From: Acidobacteriota bacterium
GTDB lineage: Bacteria > Acidobacteriota > Blastocatellia > RBC074
Assembly (NCBI GenBank): GCA_041160645.1
Contig: JBEAVZ010000113.1
Location: forward strand, 1-41,836
Reading direction: 5' to 3'
DNA: 41,836 nt
Shown: positions 1,435-19,235 of the stretch, piece after piece
Position numbering within the stretch: the stretch's first letter is position 1
How the letters are laid out: the number at the start of each line of letters is the position of its first letter
Notes under the pieces: generated by a model
What the model saw: the letters and a program-made list of their open reading frames with translations, nothing else
What the model was told of the DNA's origin: nothing
Database searches by the model: none
Translations under genes and position numbers: made by a program

Positions 1435-3174
1435 TCAGTGTATCTCAGGTTCCGGTGTCGGGGCTCCGGCTTCGAGAAAGTCGAAGTCGCACCCTTCGTG
1501 CGCCTGTCGAACCCGCTCGGAGAAGATGGCCCCATAGCCACGCTGATAGTGCGGCGCCGGACGCACCCAGCGTTCACGCCGCCGGGCGAGCTCGTCGTCG
1601 CTGATTCGCAGTTCAAGCCGCCGCCCGGCGAGGTCGAGCTCGATCAGATCCCCATCTTCGACCAGCGCAAGCGGTCCACCGATGAAGCTCTCGGGTGAAA
1701 CGTGCAGGACACAGGTGCCGTACGAGGTGCCGCTCATTCGCGCATCTGAGATACGCACCAGATCACGTACCCCTTCGCGCAGCAGCTTCCGTGGAATCGG
1801 AAGCATCCCCCATTCCGGCATTCCCGGACCACCAAGGGGACCGGCATGCTTGAGGACCAGGACCGAATTGGCGTCGACAGGGAGCGAATCGTCATCGATG
1901 CGCGCCGCCATGTCATTATAATCCTGGAAGACGACCGCCCGTCCGGTGTGCTGCAACAGCCGTGGAGTCGCGGCCGTAGGCTTGATCACCGCGCCATTTG
2001 GAGCCAGATTGCCAAAGAGCACTGCGGTGCCGCCCTGCCGGGCAACCGGATTGTCGATCGTCCGGATCACCTCCGGCTTGAAGATTCGCGCCCCGGCAAT
2101 ATTCTCACCAAGACTCTTTCCATTGACCGTCAGGCAGGTCAGGTCGAGGAGATCGGTCAGCTGCGCCTGCAAGGCCCGGAGTCCACCGGCATAGTAGAAG
2201 TCCTCCATCAGAAACTCTCCGGAGGGGCGGATGTTGGCGAGCATCGGCGTCCGCTGCGATATCTCATCGAATCTCCCGAGGTTGAGCGGAATCCCGGCCC
2301 GGCCGGCCATGGCCAGGAGATGGACGATCGCGTTGGTCGATCCGCCAATCGCCATATCGACGGTGATCGCATTGTCGAAGGAGGCCACGGAGAGGAGATG
2401 GCTCGGCTTCAGATCCTCCCAGACCATCTCGACGATCCGCCGGCCACAGGCGGAGGCCATGCGTGAGTGGTTGGCATCGACGGCCGGAATCGAGGAAGCC
2501 CCGGGCAGGGTCAGTCCAAGCGTTTCGGCCATGGCCGTCATGGTCGAAGCAGTGCCCATCGTCATGCAATGGCCAGGCGAGCGGGCGATTCCATCCTCGA
2601 TCGCGTTCCAATCAGCGGTGGAGAGATTGCCGGCGCAGCGCTCCGCCCAGTACTTCCAGCCATCACTTCCACTCCCCAGCACCTGCCCCTGCCAGTTGCC
2701 GCGCAACATCGGGCCCGCCGGCAGATAGATCAGGGGCAGATCGACCGAGAAGGCGCCCATCAGGAGCCCGGGGGTCGTCTTATCGCAGCCCCCCATGAGG
2801 ACCACACCGTCGATCGGCTGGCTCCGCAGCAACTCCTCCACCTCCATGGCGAGCAGGTTGCGATAGAGGAGCGGACTCGGCTTCATAAAGATCTCGTTGA
2901 CGGGCATCGCCGGGATCTCGACTGGAAACCCACCCGCCTGGAGCACCCCGCGCTTCACCTCCTGCGCCCGGTCACGGAAATGGGTGTGGCAGATCGTCAG
3001 ATCACTCCAGGTGTTGATAATGCCGATGACCGGTTTCCCGGCATAGTCCTCGCTGCCATAGCCCATCTGCTTGAGGCGTGATCGATGCCCAAACGACCGC
3101 AGATCGTCGGGACGGAGCCACCGGGCACTCCTCAATTCATCCGCTCGCTTGCGATTTCCACCGTCTGCCATCAC
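1435..3174 (-). CDS. IlvD/Edd-family dehydratase (dihydroxy-acid or sugar-acid dehydratase)
   Basis: 579-aa ORF with the family motif MGGCDKTTPGLLMGA and C-terminal SDARMSGTSYGTCVLHVSPE. It lies immediately downstream of a GntP permease, which favours a sugar-acid (aldonate) dehydratase role. Confidence 0.85.
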   Translation of the reverse strand: MMADGGNRKRADELRSARWLRPDDLRSFGHRSRLKQMGYGSEDYAGKPVIGIINTWSDLTICHTHFRDRAQEVKRGVLQAGGFPVEIPAMPVNEIFMKPSPLLYRNLLAMEVEELLRSQPIDGVVLMGGCDKTTPGLLMGAFSVDLPLIYLPAGPMLRGNWQGQVLGSGSDGWKYWAERCAGNLSTADWNAIEDGIARSPGHCMTMGTASTMTAMAETLGLTLPGASSIPAVDANHSRMASACGRRIVEMVWEDLKPSHLLSVASFDNAITVDMAIGGSTNAIVHLLAMAGRAGIPLNLGRFDEISQRTPMLANIRPSGEFLMEDFYYAGGLRALQAQLTDLLDLTCLTVNGKSLGENIAGARIFKPEVIRTIDNPVARQGGTAVLFGNLAPNGAVIKPTAATPRLLQHTGRAVVFQDYNDMAARIDDDSLPVDANSVLVLKHAGPLGGPGMPEWGMLPIPRKLLREGVRDLVRISDARMSGTSYGTCVLHVSPESFIGGPLALVEDGDLIELDLAGRRLELRISDDELARRRERWVRPAPHYQRGYGAIFSERVRQAHEGCDFDFLEAGAPTPEPEIH

Positions 3175-3203
3175 GAGATCCTTTCGCTAGTTGAGATTGC
3201 CTC

Positions 3204-4577
3204 TCAAATGAGGGGAAAGAGCCGGGCAAAGATCATTGTCACGATGATCCCGACCACCCCCATGATCAGCATCAACGGACTGATCGTCTTCAAACCCTCC
3301 CGCTCGGTCATCCCGCTCATGCGGGTCATGATCCAGAAGGCGCTGTCATTGAGCCAGCTGACCGGTTTTGAACCACAGCCGATCGCCATGGCCAGGTAGA
3401 CCGGGTGAAAGCCGAGAATCTCCGGGCGGGCCATCCCCGCAAAGGCGCCCGCCGTGGTGATCATGGCGACCGTGGCCGATCCTGAAGAACTGCGGATCGC
3501 CGCCGTGAGCAGAAATGCTACCGGCAGAATCGCCGCCGAGGCACGCAGCTGCTCGATCATGCCTCCGATGTGGGTCTGCTGGAGGACAGTGCCAAAAGCT
3601 CCTCCGGCGCCGGTGATGAGAATGATTCCTCCGGCTCCGACCAGCGCCTCCCTGATCCCCGCCTCAAACTCTTCACGCGCTCCCCAGCGGTAGAGGAGCC
3701 AGACCGCGAGAGCCGCGCCGATCATCAGCGCCACGTTCTTGTCTCCCAGCGCCTTCAGAAGGGGCGTCGGGTAGATGGCCGCGACCGCGATCAGCACGAC
3801 CGGGAGGATGATCGGCAGCAAGGCCAGCCACGTCCACGGCAGCTCTGATTCATCCCGCGCCATGAGATCCTCCATCCGCGCCAGCGACTCGGGGGTCTCC
3901 CGCAGGGGCAGATCCCAGCGGGCGTCGGCCCATTTCGCGAAGAGATAGCCGGCCGCCGAACAGAAGAGGCCGATCAGACATCCCATTCCAATCATCATCG
4001 CCAGTCCGATTTTGAACTCCGCGGCGACGAAGAGCGGACCTGGCGTCGGTGGAACCAGCGAATGGGTGATCGATCCACCGGCAATCAGGGCCAGAATATA
4101 CCACAGATAGTGCCGCCCGCTCCGCAACCGGACGGCCTTGATGAGCGGGATCACCAGGTAGAAGACCGTGTCGAAGAAGACTGGAATACCAAGCAGAAAC
4201 CCACTCGCGACAAAGGCCCGCGGCGCCCGCTCCTGCCCGACCAGCCGGAGGGTCGTCCGGACGATCCGGTCGGCCGCCCCACTCCGCAGCATCCCCTCGC
4301 CAATGATCGAGGCCATCGCGATCATCAGGCCAATCTGTCCGACTGTCCGCCCAAACCCCTCGGCGACCCGATCAGCAAAGAAGGCTGTCTCGAGCTGCCG
4401 GGCGGCAGCCTCACTCATTCCTCGCGCCAGTCCGTACTGATGGATCAAGTCGCCCGGCGTCAACCAGGCCACCAGTAAGGCCGCGATGATCAGCGCCAGA
4501 AACGCATGGAGCCGTAGCCCAAGAATCAGGCCGATCACGACAATCATGCCAGTCACGAGAAGGATGTATGGGTTCAT
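3204..4577 (-). CDS. GntP-family (gluconate/aldonate:H+) permease
   Basis: 457-aa polytopic membrane ORF with GntP-like N-terminus MNPYILLVTGMIVVIGLILGLRLHAFLALIIAALLVAW. It sits 30 nt upstream of the dehydratase on the same strand. Confidence 0.8.
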   Translation of the reverse strand: MNPYILLVTGMIVVIGLILGLRLHAFLALIIAALLVAWLTPGDLIHQYGLARGMSEAAARQLETAFFADRVAEGFGRTVGQIGLMIAMASIIGEGMLRSGAADRIVRTTLRLVGQERAPRAFVASGFLLGIPVFFDTVFYLVIPLIKAVRLRSGRHYLWYILALIAGGSITHSLVPPTPGPLFVAAEFKIGLAMMIGMGCLIGLFCSAAGYLFAKWADARWDLPLRETPESLARMEDLMARDESELPWTWLALLPIILPVVLIAVAAIYPTPLLKALGDKNVALMIGAALAVWLLYRWGAREEFEAGIREALVGAGGIILITGAGGAFGTVLQQTHIGGMIEQLRASAAILPVAFLLTAAIRSSSGSATVAMITTAGAFAGMARPEILGFHPVYLAMAIGCGSKPVSWLNDSAFWIMTRMSGMTEREGLKTISPLMLIMGVVGIIVTMIFARLFPLI

Positions 4578-14945: not shown

Positions 14946-15710
14946 ATGTCACCACCACGAATGAGACGAATCTATCGGTTTTCGGTCTGCCTACTCGCCA
15001 TGCTCGCGTTGTCCGGTGATCAGCCTCGACAGCTCCGGGCCGCGTCTGACCACTCCGGCGCGGTGAGCCGTGCGGAAGGCCGAATCACCTCTGAAGAGAT
15101 AATCCTGAGGGTCATCGAAGAGAGCCGCCGGCGCGAAGCACTTCTGCAACGTTACTCGGTGCAAAGTGTCTACCGCGTGACCACGGATGATGGCAAAGTC
15201 CGTGCCGAGGTCAAGGCCGTCCTCAGTTACCGCGCACCAGGAGCGAAGGAGTTTCACATTATTGCCGAACGCGGATCAGAGACGATTCGCAACCGGGTCT
15301 TCAAACCGCTCATGGAGGTGGAGGTCGAGACGGCGGCGGGTCGCAGCCGGCACAACGGATCGATCACTCCCGCCAACTACAACTTCCAGCTTTTGAACGA
15401 GGAGGTTGTCGACGGTCACCCGTGTTACGTGCTCGAGGCCATCCCCCGCCGCGCCGACAAGTACCTCTTCACGGGCCGGATCTGGATCCACCGGAGCGAA
15501 TTCTCAATCGTCCGGATTGCCGGTCAACCGGCGCGCAACCCATCTTTCTGGATCAGCCGCGTTGAGTTTGTTCGTCGGTACCAGAAGATCGGCGAGTTTT
15601 GGCTGCCGGCCCATAACGAATCTAAGACCCAGGTCAAACTCTTTGGGCGCAATATCCTGACCATCGAGTATGACGATTACGAGATCTCGCAGACCGCCAG
15701 CGATTCATAA
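14946..15710 (+). CDS. Secreted LolA/RseB-fold (outer-membrane lipoprotein-sorting-like) protein
   Basis: Signal peptide MRRIYRFSVCLLAMLALSG. The C-terminal region GHPCYVLEAIPRRADKYLFTGRIWIHRSEFSIVRIAG ... EFWLP resembles the LolA-like family often found beside FtsX-type ABC exporters. Confidence 0.5.
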   Translation: MSPPRMRRIYRFSVCLLAMLALSGDQPRQLRAASDHSGAVSRAEGRITSEEIILRVIEESRRREALLQRYSVQSVYRVTTDDGKVRAEVKAVLSYRAPGAKEFHIIAERGSETIRNRVFKPLMEVEVETAAGRSRHNGSITPANYNFQLLNEEVVDGHPCYVLEAIPRRADKYLFTGRIWIHRSEFSIVRIAGQPARNPSFWISRVEFVRRYQKIGEFWLPAHNESKTQVKLFGRNILTIEYDDYEISQTASDS

Positions 15711-16201
15711 TCTGGCCTATCGGCGGGGGTCTGGTGGCGATACTCCCGGACGATCCGGCCCTGGTGAACGAGAAATGCGCCGGGCATCCGGAGCGGGTCA
15801 CCGACCGGCACTCCAAAGCCAAACCGGCGGATGATCGCCGCCTCGAAGCCCCGCTTCCAGACCGTCAGCCAATTCGATAGGTTAAAGATCTCTCCGATGC
15901 TCATGCGGCGGAGACCAAATTCGCGGTAGAGGCGGGCCTCCGGGTCACTGAACCGGGCGATCTCCGCATCTCCCCACCGCGCAAAGAATGGCCGGGCCTC
16001 AGCCTCGCTGCCCATATGGATGAACGCGACCCGCGTTCCTGTCGCTTCGATCGTCTGGCGGCGGGCTTTCACCTCGGCCAGCGTCTCGCGACAAAACGTT
16101 CAGCCGTAATGGCGGAGGAAGATGACCAGCACCGGTTGGCGTGCGGACATCTCGCGCAGACTCTCTCCATGCTGATTGCGAATTGTCTCCATCATCTCCA
16201 T
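15677..16201 (-). CDS. Peroxiredoxin-like (AhpC/TSA_2, PRXL2-type) thioredoxin-fold protein with an in-frame TGA at 16100-16102: candidate selenoprotein (UxxC), or a nonsense pseudogene
   Basis: Minus-strand frame: ATG(16201) MEMMETIRNQHGESLREMSARQPVLVIFLRHYG-TGA-TFCRETLAEVKARRQTIEATGTRVAFIHMG... This runs on into the 131-aa track ORF (15677-16072). The TGA is the only stop in that stretch. GGAG sits 10 nt upstream of the ATG. An alternative start is ATG 16150. Confidence 0.55.
16041..16092 (-). promoter_or_regulatory. Candidate bacterial SECIS-like stem-loop downstream of the in-frame UGA
   Basis: On the mRNA, GUCGC (16092-16088) pairs with GCGAC (16045-16041), and the inner CUGGC pairs with GCCAG. 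The apical region CGAGGUGAAAGCCCGCC contains GGU about 24-40 nt after the UGA. Paired by eye only, not folded. Confidence 0.3.
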
Positions 16202-16237
16202 CTTCAACAAGCTCCTGTTTGAAAAAGTTGGTCCATC

Positions 16238-17167
16238 TCAGGAGGCCGGAACGAGACGCTCCGGCCATTTGGTCGACATTCCCGACCAGATCAACAGAAT
16301 CAGGGCCATCCAGATCAGATCTGAGAGCAGCAGGTGAATGATCTGCAACGGAATGGGGGCATGAAGCAGCAGATTGACCAGGCCGAGGGCGAATTGAATC
16401 GTCACCAGAGCGATCAGATAGCGCGAGAAGTTGAGAGTCCACCGTCCCGGTCGCCAGAGGCGGACGGCCACCGCGGTCACGACGAGCAGTGTGGAGACGA
16501 CTATGGCGATGATCGGGTGATAGATCCGGAGCCTGACCAGGATGTGGGCCGTCGGCGAGAGATCCTCCCGCAGTCCTTCGGCCACCGAGGTGACCGGAAA
16601 GAGGGTCGCCCCGAGAGCGCTGATCGCCCCGCTGACCCCGACGAGGAGGGTGGCCAGAATCGTCAGCAGACACAAGAGGCGCAACCTTCCCTGCCCGGCC
16701 AGTTTCAGACGCTCCCCCGTCGTCGCCACCCACGCCGTGACCGTCAGACAAGCGAGGAGAATGAAGGTATTGAGAAGATGGGCGCCCATCCACCACGCAC
16801 GCGCCACCGATTTGTTCAAGGCCACGTACTCGAAAAGGACCAGTCCGGCGCCCACCAGAGCCTCCGTCAGCATGAAGAAGAGCGAGAGCGCGGCCAGAAA
16901 GCGGACGTGATGGCGCTTCTCATAGGCACGCCACGCATAGATGACCAGTCCAATCACCATCAACAACGCCAGACCACTGGTCAATCGGTGTGAAAATTCG
17001 ACGATGGTCGCCATGGTCGGCGTCCGCGGGACAACCTCGCCATTGCAGAGCGGCCAATGGCTGCCACAGCCGGCGCCAGATCCGCTCGCTCGCACATACG
17101 CACCCCACATGATCACCAGCAGGTTGTAACCAACAACCAGCCACGCATACTTGGAGAATCTGTTCAT
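16238..17167 (-). CDS. ctaA: Heme A synthase (COX15/CtaA family)
   Basis: 309-aa polytopic ORF. N-terminus [38 protein letters not shown] (conserved Cys pair), with His-containing helices (EFSHRL, GAHLLN). Confidence 0.8.
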
Positions 17168-17416
17168 ATGAATTCCTGCTGCAGATTAATGAATCAACGA
17201 TCAACCTGGTCGCCCGGGTTGAGCCGAGGCGGGACGACAATCTGGCGCCTCCACTGGCCATCCCCTGCCCACAGAATACCGACCAGACTGCCTGGCAGAC
17301 GGGCGGAAGGACGGTCGGGAAGACGGTCCACCACGCCTTACCGGCATTCCATTACCGATTATAAGCCCGGCCAGCGGCAAAGGTCGATTGTCTCCTTACG
17401 ACCACATCGCGCCGAG

Positions 17417-18997
17417 TCATCCCTTCAACCGCTGCGCCGCTTCGATTCGGATGAGGGCACGCTCCTCCTCACCGACCCGGTTCAAACCAAGCACGGCCGG
17501 GCCAAGGCGCGGATTGGCCCGCAGCGCCGACTCGTTTTCGATCAAAAAGTTCCAGTAGAGCGTATTGAATGGGCACGCCTCCGCACCAGTTCGCTGTTTC
17601 GGTTCATAAGTGCACCCTTTGCAGTAGTCGCTCATGCGGTTGATGTAGTTGGCCGAGGCAATGTACGGCTTGGTCGCTGTCCGGCCACCATCGGCATTGA
17701 GCCCCATTCCAATCACGTTTGGCAGGACCACCCAGTCGAAGGCGTCGATATAGACGGCATTGAACCAGTCCGCGACTTGCCGTGGATCGATCCCGGCGAG
17801 CAGGCAGTAGTTGCAGATGATCATGAGCCGCTCGATATGGTGTGAGTAGCCATCATCGAGCACCCGCGAGACCACCTGCTTCAGACAGTTCATCTCGGTC
17901 TTCCCAGTCCAGAAGAGATCCGGAAGCGGCCGCCGCGCCTGCCAGTGGTTGGCGGTCGTCAGTTCCGGCATCTGCTGCCAATACTGCCAGTAGATGAACT
18001 CGCGCCAGCCCAGAATCTGGCGGATAAAGCCCTCGACGGAGTTGATGGGCGCCTGGCCAGCGCGATAGGCTTGCTCCGCGGCGCGAATCGCCACCAGCGG
18101 ATCGATCAGGCCAAGATTGAGGTAGGGGGAGAGGAGCGAATGGAAGAGGGTCGCCGAACGCGTGGTCATCGCATCTTCATATGGACCAAAGTCGGCCAAT
18201 CTGGTCGCGATAAACAGCTGCAGCGCCTCGGCCGCCTGGGAACGCGTCACCGCCCATCGAAAACCGTCAACCGTGCCTGTCCCTCCCTCTTCACGGGCGA
18301 TCTCCGCCATCACCTGGCGGGTAATGGCATCCGGCTCCCAGCCATCGGGCGGCGGCAACTGCAGCCGCGCGGGGAGTGGCTTTCGGTTCTCTTCATCAAA
18401 ATTCCACTTACCACCCGCCGGAGCGCCGTCCGCCTCGAGAAGAACACCGAAATGGCGACGCATCTCGCGGTAAAAGTTCTCCATGACCACCCTTTTGCGT
18501 GGCGCCGGGTCGGGATATGGATTGTGCTGTCCGGTAAGAAATTGGACGTTGGGCAGGACTTTAAAATGTTGCGGATCGCCACCTGAACTGGCGAAGAGGG
18601 TGGGAATGGTGACTGACTGGAGCCGCCGCGCGCCGAACTCGCTGGCGGCCATGGTATAAAATGCCGGCGGACGAACCCTCTCCACATGGGCCTTGAGCCC
18701 CTCCGTGATTGAGGCGGACTGAAGATAATCGACCTGGTATCCCCTGCCCCGCAGATCCTCGGCATAATGGCGCATCGCGCTCAGCACGAGGACCTGCTTG
18801 TGTCGATGGTAGGGAAGCCGAACCCTTCTGGCCCGACTCTCGATCAGCGCCACCACCAGACCATCACGTCCATGAACTTCTTCAGCCGCCCGCAGGGCGG
18901 GGTGCTCGGCAAGCAACTGGTCACCGGTGATCCAGACCGTTGCCTGACCTCCGGTGCGCGAAGTCTTAGAGCTCCCGCGGACTGGTGTACTGCTCAT
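17417..18997 (-). CDS. Cryptochrome/photolyase-family protein of the FeS-BCP/CryPro (PhrB/CryB-like, COG3046) type
   Basis: VWITGDQLL N-terminus. The C-terminal YIASANYINRMSDYCKGCTYEP ... ACPFNTLYWNFL carries the clustered Cys residues typical of [4Fe-4S] bacterial (6-4) photolyases. The ATG at 18997 was chosen because the upstream part of the track ORF overlaps the small gene. Confidence 0.8.
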   Translation of the reverse strand: MSSTPVRGSSKTSRTGGQATVWITGDQLLAEHPALRAAEEVHGRDGLVVALIESRARRVRLPYHRHKQVLVLSAMRHYAEDLRGRGYQVDYLQSASITEGLKAHVERVRPPAFYTMAASEFGARRLQSVTIPTLFASSGGDPQHFKVLPNVQFLTGQHNPYPDPAPRKRVVMENFYREMRRHFGVLLEADGAPAGGKWNFDEENRKPLPARLQLPPPDGWEPDAITRQVMAEIAREEGGTGTVDGFRWAVTRSQAAEALQLFIATRLADFGPYEDAMTTRSATLFHSLLSPYLNLGLIDPLVAIRAAEQAYRAGQAPINSVEGFIRQILGWREFIYWQYWQQMPELTTANHWQARRPLPDLFWTGKTEMNCLKQVVSRVLDDGYSHHIERLMIICNYCLLAGIDPRQVADWFNAVYIDAFDWVVLPNVIGMGLNADGGRTATKPYIASANYINRMSDYCKGCTYEPKQRTGAEACPFNTLYWNFLIENESALRANPRLGPAVLGLNRVGEEERALIRIEAAQRLKG

Positions 18998-19235
18998 AGT
19001 GACGGAAAGGCTCGACACCAGGAACGAAATCGTACTTCGTCTCCGGAGCACGCTCTTCGAGCTTAACGACCTCAACCGCCTCGATCAGCAGACGATCAAA
19101 ACTCTCGAGCGGGCTTCCATTGCGGAGACAGGCGCGGACATGCGTCCTCACCACCTGGTCGACTTTCGCCTTCTGCTCAGAGGTCAGCTTGTTCAACATC
19201 TTAATTGTCTGATCGGAAATTTTATTGGTAATCAT
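18966..19235 (-). CDS. Hypothetical 89-aa protein, translationally overlapping the photolyase gene
   Basis: Strong SD (AAGGAGAG, with 6 nt between it and the ATG). Its stop lies 32 nt inside the photolyase ORF. I recognise no family. Confidence 0.55.
   Translation of the reverse strand: MITNKISDQTIKMLNKLTSEQKAKVDQVVRTHVRACLRNGSPLESFDRLLIEAVEVVKLEERAPETKYDFVPGVEPFRHYEQYTSPREL

Follow-up and report, generated by a model that had tools for sequence, protein, structure and literature searches.

A predicted selenocysteine-encoding gene of the SelL-related/PRXL2 type next to ctaA in an Acidobacteriota bacterium

Introduction

Several groups of peroxiredoxin-like (Prx-like) proteins carry selenocysteine (Sec, U) within a redox motif equivalent to CxxC. 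Here we compare with them a gene found on the minus strand, at positions 15677-16201, of a 41,836-nucleotide stretch of DNA from an Acidobacteriota bacterium of the class Blastocatellia (contig JBEAVZ010000113.1 of assembly GCA_041160645.1), in which an in-frame TGA stands at the place of the first Cys codon of such a motif. The whole stretch is hereafter called the window. Selenoprotein L (SelL), which occurs in fish, invertebrates and marine bacteria, has a UxxU motif and forms a diselenide. The selenoproteome survey based on Global Ocean Sampling (GOS) data terms SelL "a Prx-like protein" and includes, in a set named "Prx-like 1", reads with the motif ...FHRHLG-U-xxCR... (Zhang & Gladyshev, 2008; PMC2398784). 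This set is a heterogeneous bin defined by pfam00578, which also holds WUPYC and HWUPYC sequences; neither Acidobacteriota members nor a linkage to ctaA are described for it (PMC2398784). In eukaryotes, SelU (FAM213A/PRXL2A) contains Sec in birds and fish and Cys in mammals (PMC4466519, PMC3316567). A selenoprotein described as an "AhpC/TSA family protein", belonging to PF13911 and carrying UxxS, is reported from the delta-1 symbiont of Olavius algarvensis in a 2022 review, which also tabulates Prx-like families with UxxC and UxxU motifs (PMC9312934).

The window protein resembles members of the NCBI-curated family NF040769 ("SelL-related redox protein"), on which it scores 144 bits, as compared to 152-158 bits for the Cys-type proteins P0019, P0013 and P0059. 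However, most members examined carry CxxC, whereas the window protein carries UxxC. The GOS read JCVI_READ_1093012208814 gives 114 bits on the same model, and its alignment to the window protein has an E-value of 5e-10. Since the GOS "Prx-like 1" reads match, Sec at this position in this family is already documented, although the identity between these reads of marine origin and the window protein is low, at about 29%. With SelL the window protein shares the nature of a Prx-like, thioredoxin-fold selenoprotein with Sec in a CxxC-equivalent motif, a kinship asserted by the name of the NCBI family; nevertheless, SelL proper has two Sec residues (UxxU), while the motif in the window reads U-T-F-C, its two redox positions being encoded by a TGA and a TGT, and has a single Sec. 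Eukaryotic SelU and PRXL2A-C belong to the same PF13911 family, have the same fold and show CxxC at the same place (LRRFGCVVCR in human PRXL2B, whose structures are PDB 9us9 and 9usa). An earlier note on this DNA, made from the sequence alone, had placed SelU in the same family, which is correct at family level (SelU being FAM213A/PRXL2A; PMC4466519). Yet identity to the eukaryotic PRXL2 proteins is merely 16-19%, and eukaryotic SelU has its selenocysteine insertion sequence (SECIS) in the 3' untranslated region, whereas the candidate structure described here lies inside the coding sequence directly after the UGA. The Olavius algarvensis symbiont protein, as far as motif descriptions can be compared, has the same Pfam domain and Sec at the first motif position, but Ser in place of the resolving Cys.

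Results

An in-frame TGA interrupts a 174-residue gene

The elements of the gene, as read from the sequence and its translation, are the following.

15677-16201, minus strand: predicted selenoprotein coding sequence (SelL-related/PRXL2-type), 174 residues, ATG at 16199-16201 and TAA at 15677-15679 (translation)
16100-16102, minus strand: in-frame TGA, predicted Sec codon (U34), first position of the U-T-F-C redox motif
16091-16093, minus strand: TGT codon for Cys37, the resolving Cys of UxxC (sequence and homologue alignment)
16212-16216, minus strand: Shine-Dalgarno-like AGGAG, 10 nt 5' of the ATG (sequence)

At this locus the list of open reading frames (ORFs) contains only 15677-16072 on the minus strand, a 131-aa frame with a GTG start, as the earlier note had stated. 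When the frame from 16201 to 15677 was translated, 174 sense codons were found with a single internal stop, which is the TGA at codon 34. The translation reads MEMMETIRNQHGESLREMSARQPVLVIFLRHYG, followed by this stop, by TFCRETLAEV...CEIS and by the terminal stop, and the immediate context of the TGA is ...FLRHYG-stop-TFCRETLAEV.... The TGA is thus indeed the sole stop back to the ATG, and the GGAG that had been noticed 10 nt before the start codon is present, as AGGAG. No signal peptide or hydrophobic N-terminus is found in the 174-residue protein, which is therefore presumed to be cytoplasmic.

TGA is the commonest ordinary stop codon in the window, where it ends 17 of the 27 genes, ctaA included. 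This rules out a reassignment of TGA, and the code is standard. A scan of the window for other coding ORFs interrupted by TGA gave no convincing candidate with a redox motif.

The protein belongs to the PRXL2 family and has a thioredoxin-like fold

For the family scans, the residue encoded by TGA was replaced by Cys. The protein matched PF13911 (AhpC-TSA_2, the PRXL2 family) with 38.3 bits against a cut-off of 27, and NF040769 with its 144 bits against a curated cut-off of 120 (E-value 3.5e-42, model positions 9-169 of 173), while the match to PF00578 was merely borderline (27.6 bits vs. 26). The scores on PF13911 and NF040769 are both above the curated cut-offs, and the homologues have Cys in the column of the TGA, which the earlier note had named as a finding that would support its reading.

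A confident AlphaFold2 model obtained from 24 homologues (pLDDT 89.7, pTM 0.87) shows a thioredoxin-like fold, in which residues 34-37 are located between the strand 24-28 and the helix 36-53, with Cys37 at the N-terminus of the helix. The top structural match in the PDB is the human prostamide/PGF synthase PRXL2B (9usa, TM-scores 0.68/0.72), which is also the sole PDB match at sequence level (E-value 0.007); PrxQ/BCP, ResA and other proteins of the peroxiredoxin fold rank below it in the structure comparison. The canonical peroxiredoxin motif PxxxT/SxxC is absent, in that VLVIFLRHYG-U has no Pro at -7 and no Thr or Ser at -3. The family scores, the fold match to PRXL2B and the missing motif together identify a CxxC redox protein of the PRXL2 type and not a true peroxiredoxin. 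Of the earlier description as "peroxiredoxin-like", the PRXL2 assignment therefore stands, but not membership of the peroxiredoxins in the strict sense.

A four-residue insertion (NLSNWLTVW, residues about 111-114, window positions 15860-15871 on the minus strand) is shared with the closest relatives (L001-L003), whereas other orthologues read IFNL-TVWKRG there. This is the part of the model with the lowest confidence (pLDDT about 76-83).

The TGA is conserved at the position of the first Cys

When 5.8 billion proteins were searched, 64 relatives were obtained. In the 14 clusters nearest to the query there are only C-terminal fragments, 105-131 aa long and covering 61-75% of it, which bears out the expectation that gene callers would truncate or miss the gene. 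The metagenome-assembled genomes (MAGs) examined annotate it merely as a truncated "AhpC/TSA family protein", and some assemblies additionally call a separate N-terminal fragment of 30-38 aa. Full-length relatives, at about 40-50% identity, bear FLRHxG-C-xFC-RE, and in the alignment the first Cys of this motif stands opposite the TGA; both the AhpC/TSA_2-type motif and the TGA in place of its first Cys, for a predicted U-T-F-C, had been proposed earlier and are confirmed by this alignment.

The pair of fragments called by annotation pipelines (30-38 aa and 105-131 aa) is the one expected if the 131-aa product starting with GTG at 16072 were real and the 33 codons upstream were a leader peptide or a regulatory upstream ORF ending at the TGA. 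We consider this very unlikely. In fact, such a product would be devoid of strand beta1 and of the CxxC active site, by which the fold is defined, its internal start is not conserved (the close clusters are 105, 107, 108, 127 or 131 aa long and begin at differing residues), and each residue of the supposed leader can be matched to one in the N-terminal domain of the full-length Cys homologues.

The DNA of the orthologues was collected from the loci of the truncated hits and from a scan of one genome per GTDB species. In every "truncated" gene examined, the TGA was found at exactly the same codon and was preceded by a conserved N-terminal region. Altogether, 31 distinct Sec-type sequences, with divergence down to about 33% identity, have the TGA at this codon; they come from Acidobacteriota (Blastocatellia), Chloroflexota (Anaerolineae, Thermoflexales, Ca. 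Roseilinea) and one Planctomycetota MAG, while Cys forms are found in Planctomycetota (Phycisphaerae), Flavobacteriales and Myxococcota. In each of 42 GTDB loci, a TGA or a Cys stands in this column. A read error is ruled out, since the TGA is present in more than 10 independent assemblies (from NCBI, ENA, Logan and GTDB genomes). Within the clade of the window, the 26 codons upstream of the TGA show 66.8% amino acid identity, as compared to 61.7% downstream of it, although synonymous changes in these codons are frequent (0.465). This combination of a conserved protein sequence with abundant synonymous differences indicates purifying selection on a translated N-terminus.

These data also bear on the possibility, raised in the earlier note, that the gene is a nonsense pseudogene, in which a TGY-to-TGA change inactivated a Cys-type PRXL2-like gene whose upstream part is now decaying. 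A single point mutation would be enough, and all annotations do take the TGA as a stop. However, an identical TGA is retained in the 31 sequences from three phyla, the upstream codons are as conserved as those downstream and contain no frameshifts or further stops, and synteny, ribosome binding site and start codon are all preserved. The comparative data leave the pseudogene with next to no probability, and we regard it as untenable or very unlikely, as we do an error in sequencing, a non-standard code and a true product of 131 aa.

Some members depart from the common motif. In a Pyrinomonadaceae MAG (L027:9959-10048, on a 1.8-Mb contig) the TGA is kept, but the resolving Cys is replaced by Ala (FLRHFG-U-TF-A-RE), which implies a mechanism with one Sec; this UxxA variant is analogous to the UxxS selenoprotein of PF13911 (PMC9312934). 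P0052 and P0054, encoded on contigs of 3.6 Mb and 2.65 Mb, have Asp in the Sec/Cys column (FLRHFG-D-SFCRE), so that the nucleophile is lost while the second Cys is kept; on NF040769 they score 108.6 bits, slightly under the cut-off. The Cys-type members from Planctomycetota/Phycisphaerae (L026, L028, L029, L031-L039, L042 and L043; proteins P0008, P0013, P0026, P0040 and P0047) are fusions of about 280-305 aa, usually adjoining a tRNA-Met gene, and their hydrophobic N-terminal domain (…NDLLWWIPF…) finds no match in Pfam.

A stem-loop follows the UGA

Two RNA elements were located downstream of the UGA.

16039-16094, minus strand: SECIS-like stem-loop, nt +9 to +64 from the U of UGA (fold, shuffles, conservation)
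16022-16038, minus strand: second hairpin, GAACGCG-GGU-CGCGUUC, 7 bp with a GGU triloop, directly 3' of the stem-loop (fold)

The stem-loop consists of an outer helix (UUGUCGC/GCGACAG), a middle helix, in which GACGCUGGC is paired with GCCAG-A-CG-A-UC and which includes CUGGC/GCCAG, and an apical mini-hairpin GGU-GAAA-GCC, whose loop begins 29 nt after the UGA. The two helices that had been drawn in the earlier note, GUCGC/GCGAC and CUGGC/GCCAG, are thus both part of the minimum-free-energy fold, and the GGU that it described in an apical region 24-40 nt from the UGA is seen at 30-32 nt from its U. The bSECISearch program looks for an apical loop about 16-37 nt from the UGA and for G or GU in the apical region.

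The free energy of the fold is -27.1 kcal/mol (z -3.44), and none of 200 shuffled sequences was equally stable. When codons were shuffled, z was -3.4 for the window and between -3 and -5.4 for most of the closest orthologues (-1.8 for one near-identical sequence), but near zero in the more divergent Sec-type sequences; the mean of all 31 was -1.73, as compared to -0.44 in 15 Cys-type genes. In an alignment of 18 sequences, 81.3% of the stem-loop cells are paired, vs. 26-55% in slid controls, although the divergent L024, L025, L027 and L030 do not match the helices of the window column for column. Synonymous sites vary less over both arms (0.23-0.35) than in the rest of the gene (0.5-0.6), and this depression independently supports selection at the RNA level. 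Orthologues from Chloroflexota have, in an unrelated sequence, a hairpin UUGGCCA-GGU/GGC-UGGCCAA, shortened to 6 bp in two orthologues. Its loop begins at a distance of 25 nt from the UGA, and it fits the bacterial SECIS consensus that Zhang and Gladyshev reportedly put forward in 2005.

The second hairpin is paired in 89.7% of the cells in 18 sequences, the divergent L027 included, shows one compensatory change (G-C to A-U, in L017) and has depressed synonymous variation. Its GGU triloop resembles that of the Chloroflexota hairpin but sits 65-81 nt from the UGA. It may assist the SECIS as an accessory element, or it may simply follow from the conservation of the GT(R/Q)(V/L)AF codons.

Observations that weigh against Sec decoding, and the possibility of read-through

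A number of results count against the view that the stem-loop is a SECIS and that the UGA is read as Sec. Covariation is weak, in that 6 cells are compensatory and values as high as those observed are obtained with 26-30 of 500 shuffles. RNAalifold, applied to the clade of 18 sequences, recovers no long stem-loop but merely a 3-bp hairpin. The helix arms also encode conserved residues (CRE and IEATG), and part of their conservation therefore derives from the protein. A strict test for a perfect hairpin with the bacterial SECIS consensus discriminates poorly (15 of 31 Sec-type vs. 5 of 15 Cys-type genes), and no Rfam family matches the stem-loop, a permissive threshold yielding only noise. Finally, no selA, selB, selD or tRNA-Sec gene was found in the 41.8-kb window, which was searched with ARAGORN and Rfam for tRNA-Sec and with Pfam on most ORFs over 200 aa, nor in about 790 kb of related loci (52-64 loci, ARAGORN and motif scans). 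Extension beyond the genes at the window edges, which gave about 10 kb at one end and short contigs at the other, revealed no sel genes either. Sec-using Acidobacteriota are known, such as Occallatibacter riparius (PMC12013277). As for the structure predicted in the earlier note, then, its conservation within the clade and its stability relative to shuffled sequences hold, while its covariation is weak and RNAalifold does not recover it, and we consider that the stem-loop is likely but not proven to be a SECIS.

During the tRNA search, ARAGORN returned a "tRNA-Val" of 98 nt at 1538-1635 on the plus strand, which was considered as a possible long-arm tRNA. It has the anticodon CAC and no Rfam support, lies antisense inside a gene of the ilvD/edd dehydratase family (1435-3174, minus strand), and is very probably a false positive. 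The same "tRNA-Val (CAC)" call is made at positions 9714-9811 of L062-L064.

The failure to find Sec machinery in the window or in the related loci would agree with read-through of the UGA without Sec, in which near-cognate suppression or a suppressor tRNA inserts Trp, Cys or Gly, and a stem-loop could in principle promote generic read-through as well. Several lines of evidence make this quite unlikely. The recoded site is the nucleophilic Cys of a redox CxxC motif, which is the classic site of Cys/Sec exchange, and its column holds only Cys or TGA, and rarely Asp. Reads of the same family with UxxC are classed as selenoproteins in GOS, the GGU/GGC-triloop hairpin of Chloroflexota lies at about the spacing of bacterial SECIS elements, and TGA is otherwise the main stop codon.

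The gene lies directly downstream of ctaA

Upstream of the gene, on the same strand, we observed the following.

16238-17167, minus strand: ctaA, heme A synthase, COX15-CtaA (PF02628, E-value 4.4e-38)
17358-17387, minus strand: sigma-70-like promoter match upstream of ctaA, TCGACC-18-TATAAT (10 of 12 matches, from a consensus scan alone)

The TGA stop of ctaA is followed after 36 nt by the ATG of the selenoprotein gene, in the same frame, in agreement with the distance and with the identity of the upstream gene given in the earlier note. No terminator-like or promoter-like site was found in this 36-nt gap, and the match at 17358-17387 is a candidate promoter of a joint transcript. The selenoprotein gene is thus probably co-transcribed with ctaA, as had been suggested. 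In 10 Acidobacteriota loci ctaA is the immediate upstream neighbour, and in an eleventh (L021) it lies 2.5 kb upstream of the gene. Neighbours are unrelated in the Chloroflexota loci (an M17 peptidase and a lipoate ligase), and therefore the link to ctaA is specific to this Acidobacteriota lineage; its functional meaning is speculative.

Also conserved near the locus are a photolyase-related DPRP gene, an SDR gene, a divergent gene of the F420-ligase family and a convergent LolA-like gene. The last of these (LolA-like/TP_0789-like, 14946-15710, plus strand) overlaps the 3' end of the selenoprotein gene by 34 nt (15677-15710), and this convergent overlap is kept in L001-L005 and L009-L011. Photolyase and/or flavin amine oxidase genes are neighbours in a more distant Sec clade (L012-14, L021 and L025), and their recurrence hints at a context of light or photo-oxidative stress. 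Members of the photolyase family are the DPRP gene of the window (17417-19075, minus strand) and FAD_binding_7 genes in L012-14; neighbours of the photolyase or flavin amine-oxidase-like kind are located at L012:1096-1914 and 2919-3902 and at L025:10387-11409.

Discussion

That the frame from 16201 to 15677 is a Sec-encoding gene, in which UGA34 is read as selenocysteine, is in our opinion highly probable, and it is the reading to which gene structure, family membership, the Cys/Sec column, the conservation before as well as after the TGA and the structure of the RNA point. The original proposal of a UxxC selenoprotein of the AhpC-TSA_2/PRXL2 type is upheld by the Cys column, by the conserved TGA and by the family scores.

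With Sec inserted at codon 34, the active site would be U34-T-F-C37, located at the N-terminal end of helix alpha1. In analogy to what happens in other bacteria, the stem-loop beginning 9 nt past the UGA would recruit SelB-GTP-Sec-tRNA(Sec) to the ribosome, and termination at the UGA would in this way be out-competed. Fold and motif suggest that the exposed selenolate of Sec34 would then attack a peroxide, or a disulfide or sulfenate on a partner protein, that Cys37 would resolve the intermediate with formation of an intramolecular selenenylsulfide, and that a thioredoxin-type reductant would regenerate the enzyme. Gene callers, by stopping at the TGA, are left with only the 131-aa C-terminal fragment, which contains neither strand beta1 nor the active site.

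Two less ordinary readings may be added to Sec decoding, and taken jointly we hold them to be unlikely. In the first, there would be a functional link to heme A synthase and to the photolyase-type genes that recur at the locus: the selenoprotein may serve, in this Acidobacteriota lineage, as heme A synthase's own redox partner, and it might shield or reduce CtaA or its haem intermediates when photo-oxidative stress occurs. In the second, the recoding signal may be composite, made of the long stem-loop and of the constrained GGU-triloop hairpin 65-81 nt past the UGA. If this were true, the first helix would bring the distal hairpin beside the UGA, which would be an unusual architecture for a bacterial SECIS.

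The family is already known, as an NCBI-curated family under a selenoprotein-derived name, and so is its use of Sec; the knowledge of Sec decoding and of the family as such is unchanged by our results. What is new is modest, and consists of a group of Acidobacteriota orthologues with ctaA synteny and of widespread members in Chloroflexota, all of them mis-annotated as fragments. The same annotation error affects at least 31 distinct sequences from three phyla, and because the annotations examined truncate the gene, the active-site half of the protein is hidden in the databases, and so is the dependence of these Acidobacteriota and Chloroflexota on selenium. With the error corrected, the inventories of little-studied lineages from soil and freshwater gain one selenoprotein, and a clean Cys/Sec pair becomes available for studying the retention of Sec in PRXL2-type proteins, while the conserved linkage with ctaA offers a testable functional lead for the bacterial members of this family.

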